A DNA stretch of 57,772 nucleotides from Candidatus Magasanikiibacteriota bacterium (lineage in GTDB: Bacteria > Patescibacteriota > Patescibacteriia > Magasanikbacterales > GWA2-37-8): assembly GCA_017991415.1 (NCBI GenBank), contig JAGOQR010000001.1, forward strand, positions 1 through 57,772. The letters run 5' to 3'. Below, in pieces: positions 12,551 through 57,772 of the stretch. The notes beneath the pieces are model-generated. The model did no database searches. It had not been told where the DNA came from and saw nothing but the letters and a program-made list of their open reading frames with translations. The first letter of the stretch is position 1, and each line of letters opens with the position of its first letter. Made by a program: the position numbers and the translations under genes.

Positions 12551-15500
12551 CTACACCACGCCATTTATTAAATCATCTTCAAACTGAATCATTCCTTCCA
12601 GTGTTTGTTCGTACTTATTAACATCTAAAAAATCTAGTTTTTGTATCTTGTTGTGCACTGCAATTACTATTTTTTTTAACCTTTCTACATCTTCCGCCGT
12701 AATTATATAGGGAAGAATGGCCATTTCTTCGTCACTAGTTGGGTTTAGAAATTCTAAATATCCATTATTAACACTGTACTTATGAAAATCACGTGAACCT
12801 TCTATAAGAAGTTTATAGAATATAAGCTGTCTCTTGTAATTATGAAGCTGTATCTTTTTAGCTTCGTCTTTTACTTCCCAGTCTTTTTGAGCTTTACCTG
12901 TTTTAAAATCGTACACTGCCAACACCTTGTCTTGTTCGTTAGGAACAATTTTGTCTATTTTACCGGTAATGTGGACATTTTCAATCATCACACTTTGTGT
13001 TCTAAAATCAGTTTCTATCCAATGAGACGGATCAAGGCGATTGCTTGCTTTTTCTGTATATATTTTCCAAGCGATATTGCCCTGCTCAAGATAATTTTTA
13101 AAATCCTGCTCACTCATTGCCTGTTGTTCTAATTTTTCTCTAAAAATTTCGTGTATCTTTGTCAATGTAGGTTTTGTGCCAATACTTTTTAGATAGCTGT
13201 ATACGGTCTGCATCGTTTCGTGCATAGCAGTACCGTAGGATGTATGGGCAGATTTTGCTTGCGGAAATCGTAAGAAATTCTGTTCAAAAAAATGGTATGG
13301 TCCGCCTTTTTTGATATCTAGAAAATTATTGAGGTGTGTAACACTCATTATATATGTGTCGAGTAGCGGCTGAAGAACAGCGCGTTCGTCTATGGCAATT
13401 GGGCCGACTTTTGGAAGAATATGTTTTTCTAGGGTTTTTATGGTGTGTGATAATTCTATTTTTTGATGAGCGGCGTCAATTTTGTGGTCAAAATTAATAA
13501 AAATAGAAGGTTCTAAAAAAGGAACCTGTAACGAGTCTTTACCGTTGTCTTCCTTTGTATAACTCGTGAGATATAAGTGTCGTTTTGCTCTAGTTAAAGC
13601 TACAAAAAATATACGTAAAAAATCATCGAACGTGTCGCCCGAAGGGTCTATTTGCAAATTCTTTGGAAAAGCAATCATATCTCTCCCTTGAGATTTTGCC
13701 CAAACATCGCTTTGGCAATTGATTACAAAGACCGTGTCAAACTCGGAGCCTTTCGCTTTGTGTGCAGTTAAAAGAGAGACTGCGTTTGTGCCACTTAGAT
13801 AAGGGCTAGTGTCGGTAATTGGCAAATTATTCTTCTGATATATATCCACGCAAGCGACTAAGCTAGATAGACGTGGGGAATTTGTTCTGGTACCGTATAA
13901 AGAAATGGTGTTTTTAAATGTGTTTAGGCTTGATAAAAATTGTAGATACATTCTAGGATTCTGATCGTATTTTTCTTTACTAAAATAAAAACGACGAAAC
14001 GGAGAAGAAAAAGAGTCTGACTGTTCTTCTGGGCCAATTAATTTGTCAAACATCAAATCGAAAGGTTCTGTTTGTGCCTCACCTGCTAAAACCAGCAACC
14101 AAGTGGCGATATTTTTTAAATGAATATTTTCACTAATAAGCATACTGTCGATCCAGCGACCATTTTTATCACTTTTTATTGTCTTGTTTGCGTCGATAGA
14201 CAGTTGCCAAATTGTCTGGCGCTCTAGTTCCCAAAAGGGAAATGCCAGCACAATGGGAAGTAAGTCATTCTGGTAGCTCGTGTTACTGCTCGAAATTGAT
14301 TCAACTAAGCGAGCCAGCGATATCAGCTGCTGTATTTGCGGTTCATGCAATATATCCCTTTGCTTTTCATATTTAATGGGAATATTTTCCGTTTCTAAAT
14401 AATTTGAAAGAGTCTCAAGATGGTAATGGTTCCTAGCTATAACAGCAATATCATCTGGATTAACACCGTTATCAATTTTATTTTTTATTTCGTTTGCCAC
14501 ATAGGCATACTCATGTAATGCGGTATCAAAAGTATGTGCCACGATAGCACCTTCGGCAATAGCTGGATTAGCTGCTTCTAGTTTTTTTTCTATTTCTTTG
14601 ACCTGATTTGTTAGGCGGACATCGCCCTGAGAAATAATAACTTGTGAAAAATCAACAATTTCTTTGGTGGATCGATAGTTTTTGGAAAGGGTTATTATTT
14701 TTGTTTTTGGGTATTGTTTTTTAAATTGCAAAATATTATTTATTTCGGCACCTTGAAATTTATAAATAGACTGATCATCATCCCCTACTACCATTATGTT
14801 AGGGTTGCCCTCATTAACCACATTGTCTGCTAACAAATTTATAATTCTCATTTGAGCATCGTTTGTATCTTGAAACTCATCTACCAGTATATATTGATAT
14901 TGTTCTTGAAGTTGGCTTAGTATCCCCTGTTTACTGCTAAGCACACGCAAAAGATCCATGATCATGTCGTCAAAATCCACATAGCCAGATAAGAGCATTT
15001 TTTCCTGATATATTTGATACACCTGCGCAAGAGAGGTATTCCTCTCTGTTTGATAAGCATCTTTTAGATGCAGCTCTTTGGTATCTGGATCTTTTTTTAA
15101 CCAATCATCCTTCCATACGGTCAACGGCTTTGTTCCGCCCTCTTCGACTGATTTCTCATAAGCAAAAGAAAGAGACTGGACAAGTAGTTCTTTGTAATCA
15201 AAAAGACTGCTGTGCTCAATTGGAGTACCAGAGGTCTGAATACCTTCTATACGTACAATTAACTCCGGCAGTGCATCTCGAGTATTTTTAGACATTCGCT
15301 CTTCAAAAATCGGAATAATCATTTCTTCTATTTCTTTATAATAAATTGTATTTGCCTCAAGTATCTTTTGATATTCTGCTGGAGTTATGCCTGCCTTCTT
15401 CAATTTGCCAATTCTGTCTTTTATACTTTTTAAATAAAAATAAGCACCGGTTGGATCTTTTTTACTCAAAGCATCAGAAAGCGGTAGTGTTGCGAGTATT

Positions 15501-15907
15501 TCAGATATTGTCTCTACTTGAATTAACTCGTCGGCAGCATTCATTTTTTGTGTTTCGTAAAAATTTTCTTGAAAACGATTTTTAATATTTAAGGCAAAGC
15601 TATGAAACGTATGTATCGCTACCCGATGTGCGTCTACACCAATTAGATCAGACAATCTGTCGCTCATATTTTTTGCTGCAAAGTCGGTAAATGTTAAGCA
15701 TAAAATATTAGACGGATAGACATCGCCTTTTTGTAAAATATTAGCCACGCGCAAACTTAAAAGCTCTGTTTTACCAGAACCAGGACCAGCAATTACAAGT
15801 ACTGCTCCTTCGGTTGTATCTACGGCTAATTTTTGCTGTTCGTTTAATTTTTTGTATTTTTGCAAAAAAGTAGCATTACGAACAGCTTTTGCAGGAGTTA
15901 TGGTCAT
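12551..15907 (-). CDS. UvrD/AddA-type helicase fused to a C-terminal PD-(D/E)xK-like nuclease
   Basis: 1118 aa with Walker A AGPGSGKT, DEFQDT, VGDDDQSIYKFQGA and TAHKAKGSEFD. The C-terminal segment GKIDKI...VYDFKTGK looks nuclease-like. Confidence 0.85.
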   Translation of the reverse strand: MTITPAKAVRNATFLQKYKKLNEQQKLAVDTTEGAVLVIAGPGSGKTELLSLRVANILQKGDVYPSNILCLTFTDFAAKNMSDRLSDLIGVDAHRVAIHTFHSFALNIKNRFQENFYETQKMNAADELIQVETISEILATLPLSDALSKKDPTGAYFYLKSIKDRIGKLKKAGITPAEYQKILEANTIYYKEIEEMIIPIFEERMSKNTRDALPELIVRIEGIQTSGTPIEHSSLFDYKELLVQSLSFAYEKSVEEGGTKPLTVWKDDWLKKDPDTKELHLKDAYQTERNTSLAQVYQIYQEKMLLSGYVDFDDMIMDLLRVLSSKQGILSQLQEQYQYILVDEFQDTNDAQMRIINLLADNVVNEGNPNIMVVGDDDQSIYKFQGAEINNILQFKKQYPKTKIITLSKNYRSTKEIVDFSQVIISQGDVRLTNQVKEIEKKLEAANPAIAEGAIVAHTFDTALHEYAYVANEIKNKIDNGVNPDDIAVIARNHYHLETLSNYLETENIPIKYEKQRDILHEPQIQQLISLARLVESISSSNTSYQNDLLPIVLAFPFWELERQTIWQLSIDANKTIKSDKNGRWIDSMLISENIHLKNIATWLLVLAGEAQTEPFDLMFDKLIGPEEQSDSFSSPFRRFYFSKEKYDQNPRMYLQFLSSLNTFKNTISLYGTRTNSPRLSSLVACVDIYQKNNLPITDTSPYLSGTNAVSLLTAHKAKGSEFDTVFVINCQSDVWAKSQGRDMIAFPKNLQIDPSGDTFDDFLRIFFVALTRAKRHLYLTSYTKEDNGKDSLQVPFLEPSIFINFDHKIDAAHQKIELSHTIKTLEKHILPKVGPIAIDERAVLQPLLDTYIMSVTHLNNFLDIKKGGPYHFFEQNFLRFPQAKSAHTSYGTAMHETMQTVYSYLKSIGTKPTLTKIHEIFREKLEQQAMSEQDFKNYLEQGNIAWKIYTEKASNRLDPSHWIETDFRTQSVMIENVHITGKIDKIVPNEQDKVLAVYDFKTGKAQKDWEVKDEAKKIQLHNYKRQLIFYKLLIEGSRDFHKYSVNNGYLEFLNPTSDEEMAILPYIITAEDVERLKKIVIAVHNKIQKLDFLDVNKYEQTLEGMIQFEDDLINGVV

Positions 15908-25077: not shown

Positions 25078-25106
25078 TTGACAAAATTTTTTATATACTG
25101 CTTAAT
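25078..25106 (+). promoter_or_regulatory. candidate promoter P1 of island ORF1, divergent from the atp promoter
   Basis: TTGACA (25078-25083), a 17-nt spacer, then CTTAAT (25101-25106). Confidence 0.4.
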
Positions 25107-25135
25107 GAACTAAATTTATCAAGGAGCTGTTGGCT

Positions 25136-25378
25136 ATGCCCGTAAAAAAACGGCGTCCAAAAGCTTCTTTTGATACTACTCAAGAAGCTCCACTGCCCCC
25201 GGCTACCCCAGAGGTTCTGCCAGAAGAGGAGCCTTTTGACTTGGCAGCAGAGGCTGCCGCGCTCATTCCCCAAGCCACTCAACGGCTTTTTCCACCTGAT
25301 ACTGTTACGACAGAGACAAAATACCAAGATCTCTATCAAGTAGCTGCAGGCAGAGTCTGGCCAAAGCTCAAGCCGTAG
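25136..25378 (+). CDS. island ORF1: 80-aa Pro/Ala/Glu-rich hypothetical protein
   Basis: AAGGAG lies 9 nt upstream of ATG 25136. The ORF has intermediate GC, reads MPVKKRRPKASFDTTQEAPLPPATPEVLPEEEPFDL..., and has no recognisable motif. Confidence 0.4.
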   Translation: MPVKKRRPKASFDTTQEAPLPPATPEVLPEEEPFDLAAEAAALIPQATQRLFPPDTVTTETKYQDLYQVAAGRVWPKLKP

Positions 25379-25429
25379 AGAAGAACAATCTGGCCGCTTT
25401 GGGCGTTTGCGAAAATAACGCCCCCAAAC

Positions 25430-25459
25430 AAAAATAGCTTTTTCAAGGCTATTTTTGTT
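25430..25459 (+). terminator. AT-rich intrinsic terminator after ORF1
   Basis: AAAATAGC pairs with GCTATTTT around a 9-nt loop and is followed by a TGTTT run. A GGGCGTT/AACGCCC hairpin lies upstream at 25400-25422. Confidence 0.45.
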
Positions 25460-25526
25460 TATGTGGATTTATTTTGGCTAATTATACATAAAAATAGACT
25501 AATCATAAGTATTTAGTCTAGAAAGT

Positions 25527-25555
25527 ATTGACAAAAAGAGGTTTATGAGATATAT
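25527..25555 (+). promoter_or_regulatory. candidate promoter P2 of island ORF2
   Basis: TTGACA (25527-25532), a 17-nt spacer, then TATATT (25550-25555). Confidence 0.55.
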
Positions 25556-25586
25556 TGAGTTGTTCTTTAACAAATTACAGTAGTCT

Positions 25587-25623
25587 AGGGGAAATAAAGC
25601 GTTATCTTAGCGCTTTATTTCCC
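25587..25623 (+). promoter_or_regulatory. perfect 14-bp stem-loop in the ORF2 leader
   Basis: GGGGAAATAAAGCG, loop ttatcttag, CGCTTTATTTCCCC. It lies between P2 and the AAGGAGG site and has no U-tract after it. Confidence 0.6.
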
Positions 25624-25704
25624 CTTAGGTTACTCAAACCAATTCCCGTGCACCCCAAGGGGAGCACACACACCAATTTCACTGGCCAAGGAGGCAAAAT
25701 CCCG

Positions 25705-26256
25705 ATGGAGCACGTGATTGTTAACACTACCCATGGAAACTCCCGTGGGTACAGCCGTGTCGCCCTGTGTAAGCGCAGACTAGGCTGTTGTAGAGAAGGG
25801 TCTCACTTCCATGTGGAGAACTACTCGAGCGCTAGCGCTCGGAGTCCGTTCTCTCAGTCGGGTCCCTTCACCTGCTGTGACGACGCATTCGACGAGATCC
25901 AAGAAGCCCCGTGCGCGACGCGCGAACAGCAGATGCAGGCCGTTCTGGATGCGATGAACGCGGGCACCCTCCCGTTGAAGGAGGATGACCTCGACCGAAT
26001 CTTCAACGAGCCTGAGAATGGCTTCATGGTGGCTGAGGGTATGGAAAAGCTCGCCTCCATTCACGAGCTCTTGATGATGGAGAAGCTCTACGATGCGGCT
26101 CCTACCGACAAGCTCGTCGCCACGGAAGAAGTCGTCGGTGTGACCGACGACGATGACGACGGCTTCCCGGAGATCTCCGTCGAAGAACCTCCTCCCGTCC
26201 GCCGTCGAAACCCGCAGCCCGCGATCACCGCGAGCGGCGAGATCAGCGCCAGCTGA
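25705..26256 (+). CDS. island ORF2: 183-aa acidic hypothetical protein (high GC)
   Basis: AAGGAGG lies 10 nt upstream of ATG 25705, and third codon positions are strongly G/C in this frame. The sequence reads MEHVIVNTTHG...DDDDDGFPEISVEEPPPVRRRNPQP..., with no recognisable motif. Confidence 0.6.
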   Translation: MEHVIVNTTHGNSRGYSRVALCKRRLGCCREGSHFHVENYSSASARSPFSQSGPFTCCDDAFDEIQEAPCATREQQMQAVLDAMNAGTLPLKEDDLDRIFNEPENGFMVAEGMEKLASIHELLMMEKLYDAAPTDKLVATEEVVGVTDDDDDGFPEISVEEPPPVRRRNPQPAITASGEISAS

Positions 26257-26262
26257 TGGAAC

Positions 26263-26284
26263 GAGCTGCAATACGTTGCAGCTC
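26263..26284 (+). other. 9-bp stem with tetraloop immediately after the ORF2 stop
   Basis: GAGCTGCAA, loop tacg, TTGCAGCTC. Confidence 0.5.
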
Positions 26285-26315
26285 AAGAAGCCAGTGCTCG
26301 GTGAACAAGAAGTAC

Positions 26316-26383
26316 AAGTTCGCCGTCGCACAATCTTTGTAAAAGATACTTTGATATCATATACAAAGATTGGCGGCGAACTT
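26316..26383 (+). other. 68-nt interrupted hairpin (10 + 11 bp) spanning the GC-rich to AT-rich transition
   Basis: AAGTTCGCCG pairs with CGGCGAACTT, and CAATCTTTGTA pairs with TACAAAGATTG. The 20-nt apical loop contains TGATATCA. Confidence 0.5.
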
Positions 26384-26406
26384 CGTTAAAGAACAAAACA
26401 TATAAC

Positions 26407-26440
26407 AAAAAACTACGTTTAAACACGTGGTTTTTTGTTT
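26407..26440 (+). terminator. intrinsic terminator (A-tract, stem, U-tract; potentially bidirectional)
   Basis: AAAAAACTACGT, loop ttaaac, ACGTGGTTTTTT, forming 12 bp including one G-U pair. Confidence 0.6.
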
Positions 26441-26451
26441 GCTTACGAGTA

Positions 26452-26480
26452 TTGACTTTTTAGCTAAAATATAGTAAGTT
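26452..26480 (+). promoter_or_regulatory. candidate promoter P3 of island ORF3 (leaderless geometry)
   Basis: TTGACT (26452-26457), a 17-nt spacer, then TAAGTT (26475-26480). ATG 26487 lies 7 nt after the -10 element. Confidence 0.35.
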
Positions 26481-26486
26481 TTTTTT

Positions 26487-26663
26487 ATGCAAAAACGCAA
26501 ACCAAGCTCTTTCATGAAACTCTGCGATGACATGTTCGTCGCGGGAACGCTCTTCGGTGGCGCGGTCATGGAGATCGCGCTCAAGAAGTGGGACGCCTGG
26601 AGGGCAAACAAGGATCGCCATCGCCGCGTCGTCCGCAACAAGTACCCCCAGCACCACTCCTAA
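26487..26663 (+). CDS. island ORF3: 58-aa small protein with one hydrophobic stretch and a basic tail, below the ORF-track cutoff
   Basis: Hand translation gives MQKRKPSSFMKLCDDMFVAGTLFGGAVMEIALKKWDAWRANKDRHRRVVRNKYPQHHS*. G/C is enriched at third codon positions. Confidence 0.4.
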   Translation: MQKRKPSSFMKLCDDMFVAGTLFGGAVMEIALKKWDAWRANKDRHRRVVRNKYPQHHS

Positions 26664-26689
26664 CGTGGGCCAGTAGCCCTCATGCCAGT

Positions 26690-26709
26690 GAGAAGTCAAC
26701 CGACTTCTC
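26690..26709 (+). other. 8-bp hairpin downstream of ORF3
   Basis: GAGAAGTC, loop aacc, GACTTCTC. A T-run follows at about 26757-26770. Confidence 0.4.
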
Positions 26710-26827
26710 GACCGTACGACCTCACAGTGCCGCCAGCGGCCAACGAGGTTGTGCGGGTTTTTTATTTTTATTTGATTACTATTTTTAAATATGTTAGCCT
26801 TAAATCCAAAGGGAGGCACTTCCAGCT

Positions 26828-27046
26828 ATGATCGGCAAACTTCTCTCCAAGGTCGGAATCCTCAAAGAGTTCTACGATCTCCTTACTCCGACGATGATTG
26901 CTCAGATCATCTTCGGAACAATTCTCTCGCTGAGCTTGCTGGCTGGTATGATCGCGACCATACCCTTCAGCCTACCGCTCTTCCTGGGCTACATCTTGCT
27001 GGAGTACTACCGACAAGACAAGGGGGCGCTTCGCTCGTACGTCTGA
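26828..27046 (+). CDS. island ORF4: 72-aa two-TM small membrane protein
   Basis: GGGAGG lies 11 nt upstream of the ATG. The protein reads MIGKLLSKVGILKEFYDLLTPTMIAQIIFGTILSLSLLAGMIATIPFSLPLFLGYILLEYYRQDKGALRSYV, with G/C-rich third codon positions. Confidence 0.6.
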   Translation: MIGKLLSKVGILKEFYDLLTPTMIAQIIFGTILSLSLLAGMIATIPFSLPLFLGYILLEYYRQDKGALRSYV

Positions 27047-27112
27047 AGACACTTCCATGGTCTACCCAAGCTGCAACCACACGTCGCGGCCACGGCCTGG
27101 ACACTTCGGCTT

Positions 27113-27143
27113 GCTCTGCCAACACTGGCAGAGCGCTTTTTTT
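27113..27143 (+). terminator. canonical rho-independent terminator closing island 1
   Basis: GCTCTGCCA, loop acac, TGGCAGAGC, followed by GCTTTTTTT. The T-run abuts the tatD stop codon. Confidence 0.8.
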
Positions 27144-27996
27144 AAAGTGAAATATTAAATAATTTTTGAGCGTTTTGAGTAGTCGCTACTTCGGCATCTA
27201 AAAAAGAAATATTTTTTAATTCGGCAATTTTTCTAATGGTATGTTCTACCATAGGCGGTTCACACCGCTGTCCTCTAAATGGAATTGGCGCCAAATATGG
27301 TGAGTCTGTTTCTACGACGATTCTTTCTAAAGGAATGTTTTTTACAGCTTCAAGTAAATCTGTCTGATTTTGCGGATTACTTTTTTTGGGAGGAAATGTT
27401 ATTACGCCAGTAAATCCAATGCATAGCCCTAGATCTAAATATTGCTTGGCAAAAAACCAATTACCTGTATAGCAATGCACGGTGCCGCGAACAGATTTAT
27501 TACCATACTCTGCCATTAACTCTTTAAGCAAATCTATCATTTCTTGATGAGCTTCACGGACATGAATTACCAAAGCAACGCCCAACTCTTGGGCTAATTT
27601 ATATTGTAGTGTAAAAGTTTTTTTCTGCTTCTCTAAGACTTCTTCAACGGTTTTGCCTTCAGGCAACCGATATAAATCGAGTCCGCACTCCCCCACTGCA
27701 ATTACTTTTTTGCTTTGCCCTAATTTTTTATAATACTCATAATCAAAATCTTCCTCTCTGGACAAAAAACTACTCTCTTCTTCGTCAATATGAGTAGAAA
27801 ATAAATGGACGGGATGCAAGCCGATACTGGCGTAGGTAAACGGAAATCGTTCGGCCATCTCTACCCCTGCTCGACTTGTATCTTTTTGAGTACCAACCAG
27901 ATTTAAGATCATGTTTTTTTCTCCGCATTTTTTCACTACTTCTTCGGCATCATTTTTGAAACCATTAAATTGAACATGGCAATGAGTGTCAAACAT
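27142..27996 (-). CDS. tatD: TatD-family metal-dependent hydrolase/DNase
   Basis: 284 aa with N-terminal MFDTHCHVQF (HxH) and the conserved GECGLD, H.R. and ETDSPY motifs. Confidence 0.9.
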   Translation of the reverse strand: MFDTHCHVQFNGFKNDAEEVVKKCGEKNMILNLVGTQKDTSRAGVEMAERFPFTYASIGLHPVHLFSTHIDEEESSFLSREEDFDYEYYKKLGQSKKVIAVGECGLDLYRLPEGKTVEEVLEKQKKTFTLQYKLAQELGVALVIHVREAHQEMIDLLKELMAEYGNKSVRGTVHCYTGNWFFAKQYLDLGLCIGFTGVITFPPKKSNPQNQTDLLEAVKNIPLERIVVETDSPYLAPIPFRGQRCEPPMVEHTIRKIAELKNISFLDAEVATTQNAQKLFNISL

Positions 27997-54792: not shown

Positions 54793-54802
54793 AAACAAAA
54801 AA

Positions 54803-54868
54803 CCACCCGGGAGAGTCACCTAAATAAGTAAAAAATTATTTATTCGGGTGATCGGGTGGAAAATTTTT
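54803..54868 (+). terminator. three-segment hairpin terminator after the O-antigen-ligase-like gene
   Basis: CCACCCG pairs with CGGGTGG, TCACC with GGTGA, and TAAATAA with TTATTTA. The structure is followed by AAAATTTTT. Confidence 0.5.
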
Positions 54869-54953
54869 GCTAGGCAGATAAATCTGTCTATTTTTATTCG
54901 CTACAATGTAGCGGACACTTGAGACAGACTTTTTTATTATATAGAAATTTTTA

Positions 54954-55000
54954 TCGGAGAAGAGCTGCCGACACGACCTGCAATCTCCGATCTTCTCCGA
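54954..55000 (-). other. 3' hairpin downstream of paralog 1 (9-bp stem, 29-nt loop)
   Basis: TCGGAGAAG pairs with CTTCTCCGA. An equivalent structure follows paralog 2. Confidence 0.45.
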
Positions 55001-55027
55001 CACCAGATAACCCCTTCCCAACCATCA

Positions 55028-55702
55028 CTACGATGGCGGCACAACGACGACCTCTACCCACGCTTGGTACAACGCTGCACCATCTGCACAGGCGATCGTA
55101 AGTCGAGCCAGCTGCGGTTGAGCGATGGACATCTGCATGGTGTGGGATGGCGAAGGGTAGCTACCCGTCAAACCACCGCCCATACCAGTACAGTACATTC
55201 CGCTCCCAATATCATCCGGCGCGTTGTAGTGCAGGTTGAAGGCGATGCCTGCAATCGCTTGCATGGGAGCGTCGAGCTCCAACGCGTACACGCGGAACGT
55301 GGCCATCACATCCTCGGTACCGGGCGGACCCGAACAAACGAGGGTGTAGTCGGTGAGACCACCGATCGGCGACACCACGATGCGACCCGAGAGCCGAGTT
55401 CCCTGGATCGTGGTCGCGAGCGGCCCGTTCCAGTCGAGCACCGACGCACCATGGTTGGTGGTGCCAGTACACGAAGCGGCGTTCTCGACCTCGAAGACCA
55501 GCGTGGTCTCGGGGTGGTTCGCCCGGAGGTTGGACGTCGGCTCCAACCCGAAGCTCAGCAAGCTGAGCGGGGGCGGAGGGGCGTCGATGGGGGTAGGCTT
55601 GGCATCAACTGCCATAGCAACCTCATCAAGACCGAACACCTGATTGCAACCGACACTCGCAACAGTAGCGAGCATCACCACAAACAGTTTGATAACGTTC
55701 AT
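55028..55702 (-). CDS. high-GC secreted lipoprotein, paralog 1 (two Cys-pair beta-sandwich-like modules)
   Basis: 224 aa with signal peptide and candidate lipobox MNVIKLFVVMLATVASVGC. GAGG lies 8 nt upstream of the ATG, and third codon positions are G/C-rich. Confidence 0.75.
   Translation of the reverse strand: MNVIKLFVVMLATVASVGCNQVFGLDEVAMAVDAKPTPIDAPPPPLSLLSFGLEPTSNLRANHPETTLVFEVENAASCTGTTNHGASVLDWNGPLATTIQGTRLSGRIVVSPIGGLTDYTLVCSGPPGTEDVMATFRVYALELDAPMQAIAGIAFNLHYNAPDDIGSGMYCTGMGGGLTGSYPSPSHTMQMSIAQPQLARLTIACADGAALYQAWVEVVVVPPS
55211..55593. repeat. 383-nt block identical to 56147-56529 except for one 6-nt patch
   Basis: Base-by-base comparison at a constant offset of 936 nt. The only differences are GGCCAT (55301-55306) versus CCCAGT (56237-56242). 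Confidence 0.95.
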
Positions 55703-55769
55703 CGAAAGACCTCGGGGTTTATGTAGAGCATACGCGTTATGCGCACACTTCGGACTCTTTATTATCGTC

Positions 55770-55800
55770 CTAAATGTAATAATTTTTTTATTACATTTAG
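55770..55800. promoter_or_regulatory. perfect 11-bp inverted repeat upstream of paralog 1 (operator-like)
   Basis: CTAAATGTAAT, loop aattttttt, ATTACATTTAG. It lies 68-98 nt upstream of ATG 55702 in a spacer of about 15% GC. Confidence 0.45.
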
Positions 55801-55884
55801 AAAGACAATTAATATTTTTAAATTTTTATTTAATCAGTCATCTATTTTACTACCATTTATATATTGATAGTAAAAATTTATGAC

Positions 55885-55931
55885 AGGAGAAGCGCGCCGC
55901 TACAACAACCACAATCTCTGCTGCTTCTCCT
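55885..55931 (-). other. 3' hairpin downstream of paralog 2 (9-bp stem, 29-nt loop)
   Basis: AGGAGAAGC pairs with GCTTCTCCT. The geometry matches 54954-55000, but the stem ends differ while still pairing. Confidence 0.45.
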
Positions 55932-55963
55932 CGCCTCGATCTCTCGAGGGCTTCGGTTGCCAC

Positions 55964-56662
55964 CTACGATGGCGGCACGATGCTTACCTGGACCCAGGCG
56001 CGGTACATGACTGCGCCATCGGTACAGGTGATAGTGAACGTGACTAGTTGCGGTGACGACACCGACACCTGCATGGTGTGCGAGGGTGAAGGGTAGCTAC
56101 CCGACAGGCCGCCACCAGTTCCTACGCACCGATCTCCTGAACGAACATCATCCGGCGCGTTGTAGTGCAGGTTGAAGGCGATGCCTGCAATCGCTTGCAT
56201 GGGAGCGTCGAGCTCCAACGCGTACACGCGGAACGTCCCAGTCACATCCTCGGTACCGGGCGGACCCGAACAAACGAGGGTGTAGTCGGTGAGACCACCG
56301 ATCGGCGACACCACGATGCGACCCGAGAGCCGAGTTCCCTGGATCGTGGTCGCGAGCGGCCCGTTCCAGTCGAGCACCGACGCACCATGGTTGGTGGTGC
56401 CAGTACACGAAGCGGCGTTCTCGACCTCGAAGACCAGCGTGGTCTCGGGGTGGTTCGCCCGGAGGTTGGACGTCGGCTCCAACCCGAAGCTCAGCAAGCT
56501 GAGCGGGGGCGGAGGGGCGTCGATGGGGGCGTCGACGATCAGGGTATCGGGCGGGGGTGAGCCATCCGAATCGATCGAAGCGTCGACATCTTCTGCCCCG
56601 CGCGGCTCGAAGGCACAGGCCGTGAGAAGCATGGCGAAAATCAGAACAGGAAATGAGCGCAT
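55964..56662 (-). CDS. high-GC secreted lipoprotein, paralog 2
   Basis: 232 aa with signal peptide and lipobox MRSFPVLIFAMLLTAC. The central 128 codons are identical to paralog 1 apart from two codons. Confidence 0.78.
   Translation of the reverse strand: MRSFPVLIFAMLLTACAFEPRGAEDVDASIDSDGSPPPDTLIVDAPIDAPPPPLSLLSFGLEPTSNLRANHPETTLVFEVENAASCTGTTNHGASVLDWNGPLATTIQGTRLSGRIVVSPIGGLTDYTLVCSGPPGTEDVTGTFRVYALELDAPMQAIAGIAFNLHYNAPDDVRSGDRCVGTGGGLSGSYPSPSHTMQVSVSSPQLVTFTITCTDGAVMYRAWVQVSIVPPS
56147..56529. repeat. second copy of the 383-nt near-identical block
   Basis: See 55211-55593. Confidence 0.95.
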
Positions 56663-56748
56663 GATCCCTCGTGAGCAAAACCACTATGGTTTGCTAGTTA
56701 TGACCCTAAGGGCCGTGAAATTGTCGAGAGGCAAGTAGTTCTTACTGC

Positions 56749-56787
56749 CCTAAATCTAACAAGGAAGTTTTCATTGTGAAATTTAGG
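56749..56787. promoter_or_regulatory. inverted repeat CCTAAAT...ATTTAGG upstream of paralog 2
   Basis: 7-bp arms with the same CTAAAT/ATTTAG core as 55770-55800. It lies 87-125 nt upstream of ATG 56662. Confidence 0.35.
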
Positions 56788-56893
56788 ATGATAAAAATAA
56801 TTTAATTGTATTGTACTATACTTTGCTTAAATTCGAAATTAGATTTTACAACTGATCATTCCCCTATTTTTCAATAAGAAAATAATTTATTGT

Positions 56894-56931
56894 GTGCGGA
56901 TGTTCTCTCTTCTCTGAGAGAACATCCGCAC
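56894..56931 (-). terminator. perfect 16-bp hairpin downstream of the repeat-protein gene
   Basis: GTGCGGATGTTCTCTC, loop ttctct, GAGAGAACATCCGCAC. It lies 88 nt past the stop at 57019, with a weak U-rich tail on the minus strand. Confidence 0.55.
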
Positions 56932-57018
56932 TGGCCTCATGTCGCTTGCCCTTGATTCACATCAATGGTGTTGCAGACATTTCCGATTTTGATGAGGTTC
57001 GGAAGAACCATGGTCGAC

Positions 57019-57772
57019 CTACAGCGTCGGGTCGTCCGGCAGGTTGTTCTTGCCGTCGAAGCTGCACTTCGTCACCCCGGTGTACTCCTTGAAGGAGAGG
57101 GTGCCGTTGCCACCGTAGTACTCGATGGTGCAGTCGAACGGTTGCGCCGAGATCACCGAGCACGCGCCAGCCTGGGGAACCCAGGCATACGAAGCAGTGA
57201 TCGGTACCGAGCCGAGGTCGGGAGCCGGCTGAACACCGCCCCACCCACCCCAAGCGTTGAGCATGTCGGTCAGCGCGCTCGTGCGGCGAGTCTTGATTCC
57301 ACCGCAGTTGATGGCTCGCTGCTTGCACACACCAGCCGAACAGTAGCCTTGCGTCCAGGTGTAGGACGCGGGGCACTGGCTATCCATGCTGCACATGGCG
57401 GACGGCGAAGCCAGCGTGACGACCTCCGAGTCCGAAGCGGACCCGCTGGTACCCGTGCAGTTCACCGTGAAGGTGTTCTGCCCGACCGTGCTCACCGTGA
57501 CGGTGACCGAGCCGGAGGTACCGACCGAACCCGTGATCCAGTTCGCGGTGCAGCCGTTGACGTTGTTCGTCATCCAGCTGACCGTGACGGGACCGGGAGC
57601 GGAGAGGTTGTTCGTGCTGACCGTGACGTTCACGGACGGCGTGAGCGGCGAAGCCAGCGTGACGACCTCCGAGTCCGAAGCGGACCCGCTGGTACCCGTG
57701 CAGTTCACCGTGAAGGTGTTCTGCCCGACCGTGCTCACCGTGACGGTGACCGAGCCGGAGGTACCGACCGAA
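57019..57772 (-). CDS. high-GC repeat-containing secreted protein, 5'-truncated by the window edge (Ig-like 81-aa modules plus a Cys-rich C-terminal domain)
   Basis: The frame stays open to the window end. The track's 'M' at 57738 is an internal GTG inside a repeat. Modules have the pattern ...GCTANWITGSVGTSGSVTVTVSTVGQNTFTVNCTGTSGSASDSEVVTLASP. The C-terminal domain has 9 Cys. Confidence 0.75.
   Translation of the reverse strand, partial: SVGTSGSVTVTVSTVGQNTFTVNCTGTSGSASDSEVVTLASPLTPSVNVTVSTNNLSAPGPVTVSWMTNNVNGCTANWITGSVGTSGSVTVTVSTVGQNTFTVNCTGTSGSASDSEVVTLASPSAMCSMDSQCPASYTWTQGYCSAGVCKQRAINCGGIKTRRTSALTDMLNAWGGWGGVQPAPDLGSVPITASYAWVPQAGACSVISAQPFDCTIEYYGGNGTLSFKEYTGVTKCSFDGKNNLPDDPTL
57403..57772. 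repeat. tandem coding repeat, period 243 nt
   Basis: 57403-57529 (127 nt) is identical to 57646-57772. The second copy runs off the window. Confidence 0.9.

Follow-up and report, generated by a model that had tools for sequence, protein, structure and literature searches.

Recurrent gene conversion as the probable source of a three-part mosaic in two tandem lipoprotein genes of Candidatus Magasanikbacteria

The window analyzed here, a whole stretch of 57.8 kb of DNA rich in housekeeping genes from a genome with 36% GC, raises a question at its very end. The final 2.8 kb sets itself apart and consists of three minus-strand genes (g1, g2, and g3) with AT-rich spacers between them. Two of these, the tandem lipoprotein genes g1 and g2, share an almost identical middle part, the core, between ends which are strongly diverged (table 1). 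How did two neighboring genes become the same in the middle and different on both sides, and where does the single two-codon patch that interrupts the identical part come from? The comparison with related lineages indicates that recurrent interlocus gene conversion between old tandem duplicates very probably explains the mosaic, the core being in concerted evolution.

The DNA of g1 and g2 was compared at a constant offset of +936 nt, and an independent repeat search of the window recovered the same repeat families. In a preliminary description of this DNA, it had been noted that this offset is constant from the stop codon through the block, and the direct comparison agrees. At the 3′ end, the first 15 nt are identical, as described (55028-55042 vs. 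55964-55978, 15/15; CTACGATGGCGGCAC, encoding VPPS and the stop codon on the minus strand). The next 168 nt are indeed strongly diverged, but the estimate that roughly half of the positions differ was too high, since 106 of the 168 nt in 55043-55210 are identical (63%; 37% differ). The core follows, in which 55211-55593 and 56147-56529 match at 379 of 383 positions, with the patch GGCCAT versus CCCAGT as the only interruption. The mismatches are found exclusively at 55301, 55302, 55304, and 55305, and the coding strand reads ATG GCC in g1 and ACT GGG in g2. Further 5′, the two genes no longer align, with only 22 of 109 nt (20%) identical in 55594-55702 at the constant offset.

Given the background identity of the paralogs (67%), a perfect run of 288 nt has a probability of ~1e-50. 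The clustering of the four substitutions, which fall within 5 nt among 383 sites, is also far from chance (exact P = 1.7e-6), in accordance with the earlier statement that the patch does not result from random drift.

Four short contigs from other samples were compared with the window. On L001 there are g2, the beginning of g1, and a homolog of g3; L002 includes g2; L003 includes g1 and the flank with the Wzy gene; and L004, from another NCBI metagenome, repeats the g1 of the window with its flanks (1096/1097 identical). The identities of the segments are based on a codon-level alignment. L001 and L002/L003 are separate species-level lineages, with ERZ15185744, GCA_020047435.1, and ERR7337951 as the samples concerned. 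The 3′ end of the Wzy gene is 80% identical between the window and L003, and the synonymous divergence (dS) of this backbone gene is ~1.15.

The N-terminus (signal peptide and linker) and the C-terminal module group by orthology, whereas the core groups by genome. In detail, N-termini of orthologs are 76-89% identical between lineages, and those of paralogs 44-49% (unalignable); the respective values for the C-terminal module are 76-83% and 64-72%. In the core, the identity is 80-85% between lineages, whereas the paralogs show 98.7% in the window (375/380) and 99.7% for L003 g1 against L002 g2 (382/383). L001, a single contig, holds the initial 45 nt of its g1 core, and these agree with the g2 of the contig itself and not with the other lineages. 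The pattern of identity recurs independently in at least two lineages besides that of the window.

The divergence at synonymous sites leads to the same picture. Core dS is 0.015-0.02 between paralogs (0.015 for the window pair) versus 0.5-1.1 between lineages, and the paralog dS of the C-terminal module is 1.0-1.4. In a GENECONV-type test, the two within-lineage paralog pairs have runs of 71 and 70 matching polymorphic sites, and runs of this length did not occur in any of 20,000 permutations (P ≤ 5e-5 for both pairs). The tract ends shift by ~10-25 nt between lineages, and L002 g2 holds an extra short tract of g1 type (alignment columns 541-568) past an unconverted gap. This is an indication that conversion is recurrent and patchy and that it can be discontinuous. 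The initial proposal that gene conversion homogenizes the core while the N-termini and the C-terminal module stay distinct is thus borne out by the related lineages.

The 15 nt encoding VPPS and the stop codon are identical, third codon positions included, in both paralogs of the window and in L003 g1, and L001 g2 has the final 12 nt in common with them. The identity is not significant at such a small number of sites, and it could reflect either a tiny conversion tract or a constrained 3′ end.

Since the flanks group by orthology, g1 and g2 must have been duplicated before the lineages split. In L005/L006, a lineage further removed, the backbone proteins are 68-75% identical, and a single gene, encoding P0006 (37% identical), lies between a g3 homolog and the conserved downstream flank. 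Judging from these arrangements, the locus seems to have started from one gene which was duplicated in tandem, after which the ends diverged and the middle was continually homogenized.

As to the mechanism, one core would be copied over the other when the two direct copies exchange strands, which depends on their homology, and the repair that follows is non-reciprocal; presumably this is RecA-type recombination. The converted tract of ~380 nt would start at the end of the Pro-rich linker, span the immunoglobulin-like (Ig-like) domain 1, and take in the first strands of domain 2. Strictly, the homogenized block does not coincide with a protein module, whereas the preliminary description had spoken of "module 1". 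Recombination depends on the length and the identity of the homology (summarized in PMC2568036). The boundaries may be sharp because strand exchange needs near-identity and flanks diverged by 33-55% stop the extension of the tract. They would also be self-reinforcing, the diverged flanks being too unlike to pair, and selection for differing sequences of domain 2 and of the N-terminus probably adds to their sharpness. The stretch between the core copies (55594-56146) consists of the g2 C-terminal module, the g2-g1 spacer, and the g1 N-terminus. The core repeats would further permit unequal crossover, by which a 936-nt unit comprising the g2 C-terminus, the spacer, and the g1 N-terminus could be deleted or duplicated. 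Conversion at this locus keeps a common domain, and removes diversity rather than creating it.

Other explanations were weighed against the same evidence. An assembly artefact would mean that differing cores had collapsed into one consensus, or that strain variants had been stitched together, in which case the patch would be a strain polymorphism. The source is a metagenome-assembled genome (MAG), its contig seems to end inside the g3 tandem repeat, a sign that repeats did trouble the assembly, and the short contigs of the relatives break in or near the repeat (L001 stops 45 nt into the g1 core). Yet protein records place both the g1 and the g2 protein, in their exact sequence and with the respective patch allele, on a second contig of 831 kb, and L004 carries g1 with both unique flanks and with Met-Ala in another sample. 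The patch lies 90 nt from gene-specific sequence, so single short reads can link the two, and a merging of bubbles would have erased the patch too. The within-lineage identity also recurs with different core sequences in other lineages and with other assemblers, and an artefact is thus very unlikely. A single recent replacement of the core, or a partial duplication, in the lineage of the window only would be sufficient for the window alone, where the core copies differ at one patch; it is quite improbable in view of three lineages (dS ~0.5-1.1 apart) which each have their own homogenized core with slightly different ends, and in one case an extra tract, and of the orthologous flanks, according to which the duplication predates the lineage split. 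There is hardly any chance that purifying selection at the nucleotide level, on an embedded RNA or a regulatory element, keeps the cores identical without recombination. The identity does extend to all synonymous sites, but the same sites are free to change, as the core dS of 0.5-1.1 between lineages shows, and the core has no Rfam match.

Programmed surface variation, that is, silent cassettes of the vls or pilS kind, site-specific inversion, or a diversity-generating retroelement targeting the patch or the module, would suit surface lipoproteins with Ig-like domains, a patch on a hypervariable dipeptide, and a neighbor, g3, which was swapped as a whole coding sequence between lineages. CPR (Candidate Phyla Radiation) genomes often carry diversity-generating retroelements. 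The preliminary description had similarly suggested cassette exchange and a modular mechanism of surface variation. Against this, there are just two full-length copies, both complete genes that have a signal peptide, an upstream spacer, a palindrome, and a downstream hairpin of their own. A tblastn search of the window gave no third copy or pseudogene of g1/g2, and a search of 5.8 billion proteins gave no further family member from this genome. The annotated open reading frames (ORFs) of the window, with 55 kb of housekeeping genes upstream of the locus, include no reverse transcriptase, invertase, integrase, recombinase, or transposase. The core is under purifying selection, and the patch has no local template, direct or inverted. 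With no silent copies and no recombinase in the window, the suggestion of a cassette mechanism is not upheld, and programmed variation has only a very slight probability. A diversity-generating retroelement in particular is rejected, since the window ORFs include no reverse transcriptase and the patch differences are not adenine specific on either strand; on the coding strand they are T/C, G/T, C/G, and C/G, with no adenine in either copy at the variable positions.

Some points weigh against recurrent conversion itself. L002 (g2 type) and L003 (g1 type) come from different samples, and we infer that they share one genome. The within-contig identity of L001 spans only 45-60 nt. Variation may be hidden in the central ~290 nt of short-read assemblies, and with ~58 kb of the genome visible, an unannotated third donor fragment elsewhere is possible. 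Conversion as such we infer from patterns in the sequences. Finally, the patch was homogenized in the L002/L003 lineage, where both copies have Thr-Asp (TD), and it is therefore not a universally protected difference between the paralogs. Recurrent conversion between old tandem duplicates still stands as very probable.

Within Ig-like domain 1, the patch follows directly on the SGPPGTED segment and opens the last strand. Its dipeptide is MA, TG, MG, TD, and TD across the five sequences, and no other position of the core has three amino acids (Ala/Gly/Asp) encoded by four different codons, as its second one does. The patch thus lies on the hypervariable position of a domain that is constrained elsewhere. 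An origin by stepwise point mutation once the copies had been homogenized is excluded, because two of the four changes are at third positions (one of them, ACG/ACT, synonymous in itself), and yet ~99 other synonymous sites of the core are unchanged. The patch may well be an old difference between the paralogs which escaped a discontinuous tract or was kept by selection, although this is put at somewhat less than an even chance. More tentatively, it could be a complex multi-nucleotide or templated mutation that took place after the last homogenization. It is unlikely that the patch was imported as a short piece from another strain or from an unseen donor. When a template for either patch allele was sought among direct and inverted 6-12-mers, both nearby and window-wide, only chance matches were found, which leaves templating by a quasi-palindrome or by local micro-conversion unsupported. 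Avoidance of a restriction site at the palindrome TGGCCA of the g1 allele is not indicated either, as TGGCCA is present elsewhere in the window.

The products of g1 and g2 can be read as bacterial lipoproteins, on account of a hydrophobic signal peptide, a lipobox, and an invariant Cys. Judged by eye from the translations, g2 has a hydrophobic signal peptide with a canonical L-T-A-C lipobox (MRSFPVLIFAMLLTAC), and g1 a signal peptide with S-V-G-C, which is less canonical at position -3 (MNVIKLFVVMLATVASVGC). Ends of the lipobox type are also seen, again by eye, in P0006 (...LLMSGC) and at the N-terminus of g3 (...AALMGC). After the signal peptide, a Pro/Asp-rich linker (..IDAPPPP) is followed by ~180 residues which the AlphaFold2 model, that of the g2 product, predicts to be all-beta at low confidence (predicted local distance difference test, 62; predicted template modeling score, 0.50). 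Foldseek matches in the PDB are tandem domains of the Ig, FnIII, and PKD type, with E from 1e-5 to 1e-3 and template modeling scores of just 0.2-0.4. A profile search of 1.84 billion representatives matched multi-repeat proteins with a motif of the type TYTLxC(S/T)GxGG (E from 5e-13 to 9e-5). From this model and these matches, two Ig-like domains are tentatively predicted in both proteins. The ratio of nonsynonymous to synonymous divergence (dN/dS) in the core is 0.07-0.17, that is, purifying selection.

Scans against Pfam and NCBIfam returned no family for g1, g2, g3, and P0006, with Big_7 in the g3 homologs as the sole exception. Among the 5.8 billion proteins searched, five members of the family were found, two of them being the window's own g1 and g2, and the profile search added P0006 as one distant full-length relative (37% identical). 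Six orphan proteins are the only relatives. The exact g1 protein, P0004, is on three contigs, and the exact g2 proteins, P0001/P0135, are on contigs of 474 kb and 831 kb. The g1 ortholog is P0005 (L003), and the g2 orthologs are P0002 (L001) and P0003 (L002). Scans with the family alignment gave no match in GTDB representative genomes, JGI metagenome contigs, and IMG/VR viral contigs. A scan with motifs of the flanks gave one syntenic JGI contig, L006, and no match in GTDB.

The g2 ortholog of L002 (P0003; L002 830-960) lacks the conserved ..VPPS stop context and extends 34 codons into the spacer. It may be a frameshifted or decaying copy, or contain a sequencing error in a contig of low coverage.

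Among known systems, the closest analogue by its architecture is the lpl cluster of tandem lipoprotein-like genes in the nuSa-alpha island of Staphylococcus aureus, where a central conserved region of 132 nt is the site of recombination (PMC2568036, Tsuru and Kobayashi 2008). In both loci, the lipoprotein genes stand in tandem and have variable 5′ and 3′ regions around a conserved center, and homologous recombination at this central region is the proposed driver. The unit bounded by the recombination sites is also similar and joins the 3′ part of one gene, across the spacer, to the 5′ part of the next one (here 55594-56146). However, g1 and g2 have no sequence homology to Lpl (no Pfam or NCBIfam family), and there are two copies in contrast to a large cluster. 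The core is 383 nt against 132 nt, with a uniform identity of 98.7-99.7% against an average of 88%. At the present locus, conversion acts as homogenization within the genome, and shuffling of the variable regions between strains is seen only as the one short extra tract of L002.

Duplicated bacterial genes in concerted evolution by gene conversion include tufA/tufB and babA/babB of Helicobacter pylori. As in such cases, the paralogs are closer within a genome than the orthologs are between lineages, and this applies to several lineages. Unlike them, only an internal segment is converted here, which results in the three-part mosaic; the genes encode orphan surface lipoproteins of a CPR bacterium and do not belong to a core pathway; and the process reaches back over a modest time (dS ~1) and not over hundreds of millions of years. 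Antigenic variation by silent cassettes, as in Borrelia vlsE/vls, Neisseria pilE/pilS, and Anaplasma msp2, also involves segmental non-reciprocal recombination between related sequences of surface proteins and mosaic genes. In the case of g1 and g2, however, no expression site with a silent archive was found in the window or in the protein collection searched, the converted part is the conserved one, and conversion removes diversity. The definition and a survey of concerted evolution in prokaryotic paralogs have been given by Wang and Chen 2018 (PMC6053082).

The GC-rich composition of the lipoprotein genes is a stranger feature than the conversion. g1, g2, and g3 have 60-65% GC and a GC content at third codon positions (GC3) of 0.72-0.87, whereas GC3 is 0.22-0.38 in the other 36 non-overlapping window ORFs tabulated. 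Their relatives in other lineages are GC-rich too (GC3 0.60-0.79). The composition agrees with an ancient acquisition from a GC-rich source and incomplete amelioration since then; yet it has persisted over dS ~1, and no donor of the genes was found in any collection searched. GC3 of the converted core is 0.82-0.83 versus 0.60-0.65 in the unconverted C-terminal module. Lineage-specific substitutions of the core, although the counts are small, have AT-to-GC:GC-to-AT ratios of 11:10 in the window, 8:9 in L002, and 9:27 in L001, which hints at GC-biased conversion, or at selection, opposing AT pressure in some lineages.

The AT-rich spacers (54793-55027, 55703-55963, and 56663-57018) surpass both the coding sequences (80-85%) and the Wzy gene (80%) in conservation. 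Between lineages, those upstream of g2 (L001 and L002) and downstream of g1 are 91-94% identical, and the g2-g1 spacer is 81% identical (209/258 to L001). This conservation points to strong constraint on regulatory or RNA elements. A palindromic element is located ~60-130 nt upstream of each lipoprotein start codon, with the outer half-site CTAAAT..ATTTAG common to both, and it could be an operator or a hairpin. In L005 (about 680-720), the arms of the palindrome (CGAGATTT..AAATCTCG) have changes on both sides which keep the pairing. Rfam gave no match at gathering thresholds in the whole window, only chance-level matches at 24.8-27.3 kb, and no tRNAs were found in a tRNA scan.

The coding sequence of the window g3 (57019-57772) is unrelated to the g3 of L001 (105-1460) and L005 (9-518), with a BLASTP E of 0.19, whereas the latter two are 86% identical to each other. 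The 3′ untranslated sequence of g3 is conserved from TCGGAAATGTCTGCA onward despite the unrelated coding sequences. The whole coding sequence of g3 has been replaced within a conserved slot. A tandem repeat of 243 nt in g3 (57403-57529 vs. 57646-57772) shows 100% identity for at least 127 nt and reaches the end of the window, where the source contig also seems to end, and the assembly probably breaks in this repeat. The g3 protein records P0131 and P0133 belong to a MAG of Candidatus Magasanikbacteria, and P0133, the N-terminal part, is a partial gene on the same 474-kb contig.

A wider picture, which is rather improbable, would be an array of conserved slots in Magasanikbacteria, with GC-rich lipoprotein coding sequences (GC3 0.6-0.87, genome ~0.3) lying between more conserved, palindrome-bearing, AT-rich spacers. 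In such an array, whole coding sequences would be swapped, as in g3, GC-biased conversion would keep the GC content of the core high against AT pressure, and the patch would be a specificity determinant which selection shields from homogenization.

At 25100-27150, with the ATP synthase operon on one side and tatD on the other, there is a second patchy GC-rich stretch (up to 66% GC in windows of 150 nt). Its ORFs all overlap, lie on both strands, and have no Pfam match, and the stretch gave no Rfam match above chance and no tRNA.

The genes of the window include those of seryl-, lysyl-, and methionyl-tRNA synthetases, F-type ATP synthase, MreB/MreC/PBP2, Mur ligases, transketolase, and an AddA-like helicase-nuclease. 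The lysyl-tRNA synthetase is 88% identical to that of Candidatus Magasanikbacteria bacterium RIFOXYD2_FULL_39_9. Together with the NCBI record of the N-terminal part of g3 as a protein of a Candidatus Magasanikbacteria MAG, on a contig of 474,234 nt, this places the host in Patescibacteria (CPR), as a bacterium of Candidatus Magasanikbacteria.

Table 1. Coordinates of the genes, segments, and repeats of the lipoprotein locus and of one further gene of the window.
Feature	Position	Strand	Remarks
AddA-like helicase-nuclease gene	12551-15907
g1	55028-55702	minus	224-aa lipoprotein gene: signal peptide to Cys19, short linker, two predicted Ig-like domains
Diverged C-terminal module of g1 (rest of Ig-like domain 2)	55043-55210	minus	g2 counterpart 55979-56146
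Homogenized core, g1 copy	55211-55593	minus	Pro-rich linker end (DAPPPP), Ig-like domain 1, first strands of domain 2
Two-codon patch, g1 allele ATG GCC (Met-Ala)	55301-55306	minus	90 nt from g1-specific C-terminal sequence
g1 signal peptide and linker	55594-55702	minus	g1-specific; g2 counterpart 56530-56662
g2-g1 spacer	55703-55963	minus	hairpin after g2 stop, AT-rich region with 25-nt inverted repeat
25-nt inverted repeat	55758-55782 / 55788-55812		~60-110 nt upstream of g1 start
GC-rich hairpin after g2 stop	55886-55930
g2	55964-56662	minus	232-aa lipoprotein gene: LTAC lipobox, longer Asp/Pro-rich linker, two predicted Ig-like domains
Homogenized core, g2 copy	56147-56529	minus	379/383 identical to g1 copy
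Two-codon patch, g2 allele ACT GGG (Thr-Gly)	56237-56242	minus	g2 residues 141-142
g3-g2 spacer	56663-57018	minus	hairpin after g3 stop, AT-rich region, inverted repeat
Inverted repeat upstream of g2	56749-56762 / 56775-56788		outer half-site CTAAAT..ATTTAG
Perfect 16-bp hairpin after g3 stop	56894-56931
g3 (3′ part, runs off window/contig end)	57019-57772	minus	GC-rich lipoprotein gene: Big_7, repeated Ig-like modules, Cys-rich C-terminal domain

To sum up, the locus is a clear but unexceptional instance of concerted evolution; its mechanism is a textbook one, and the result calibrates expectations and does not change them. A search of the literature found no account of gene conversion in Patescibacteria/CPR, and the locus offers a compact, well-resolved case of segmental concerted evolution in a bacterium of this radiation. 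Annotation and assembly should take it as a warning, since such repeats can interrupt or confuse assemblies from short reads, and a tree of the paralogs made from the entire genes would be misleading. For the biology of these organisms, the case means that homologous recombination in these reduced genomes is active enough to hold a tract of 383 nt identical while synonymous sites elsewhere became about half to fully saturated. The locus also flags rapidly evolving surface lipoproteins, which are candidates for the contact of a presumed episymbiont with its host or partner.

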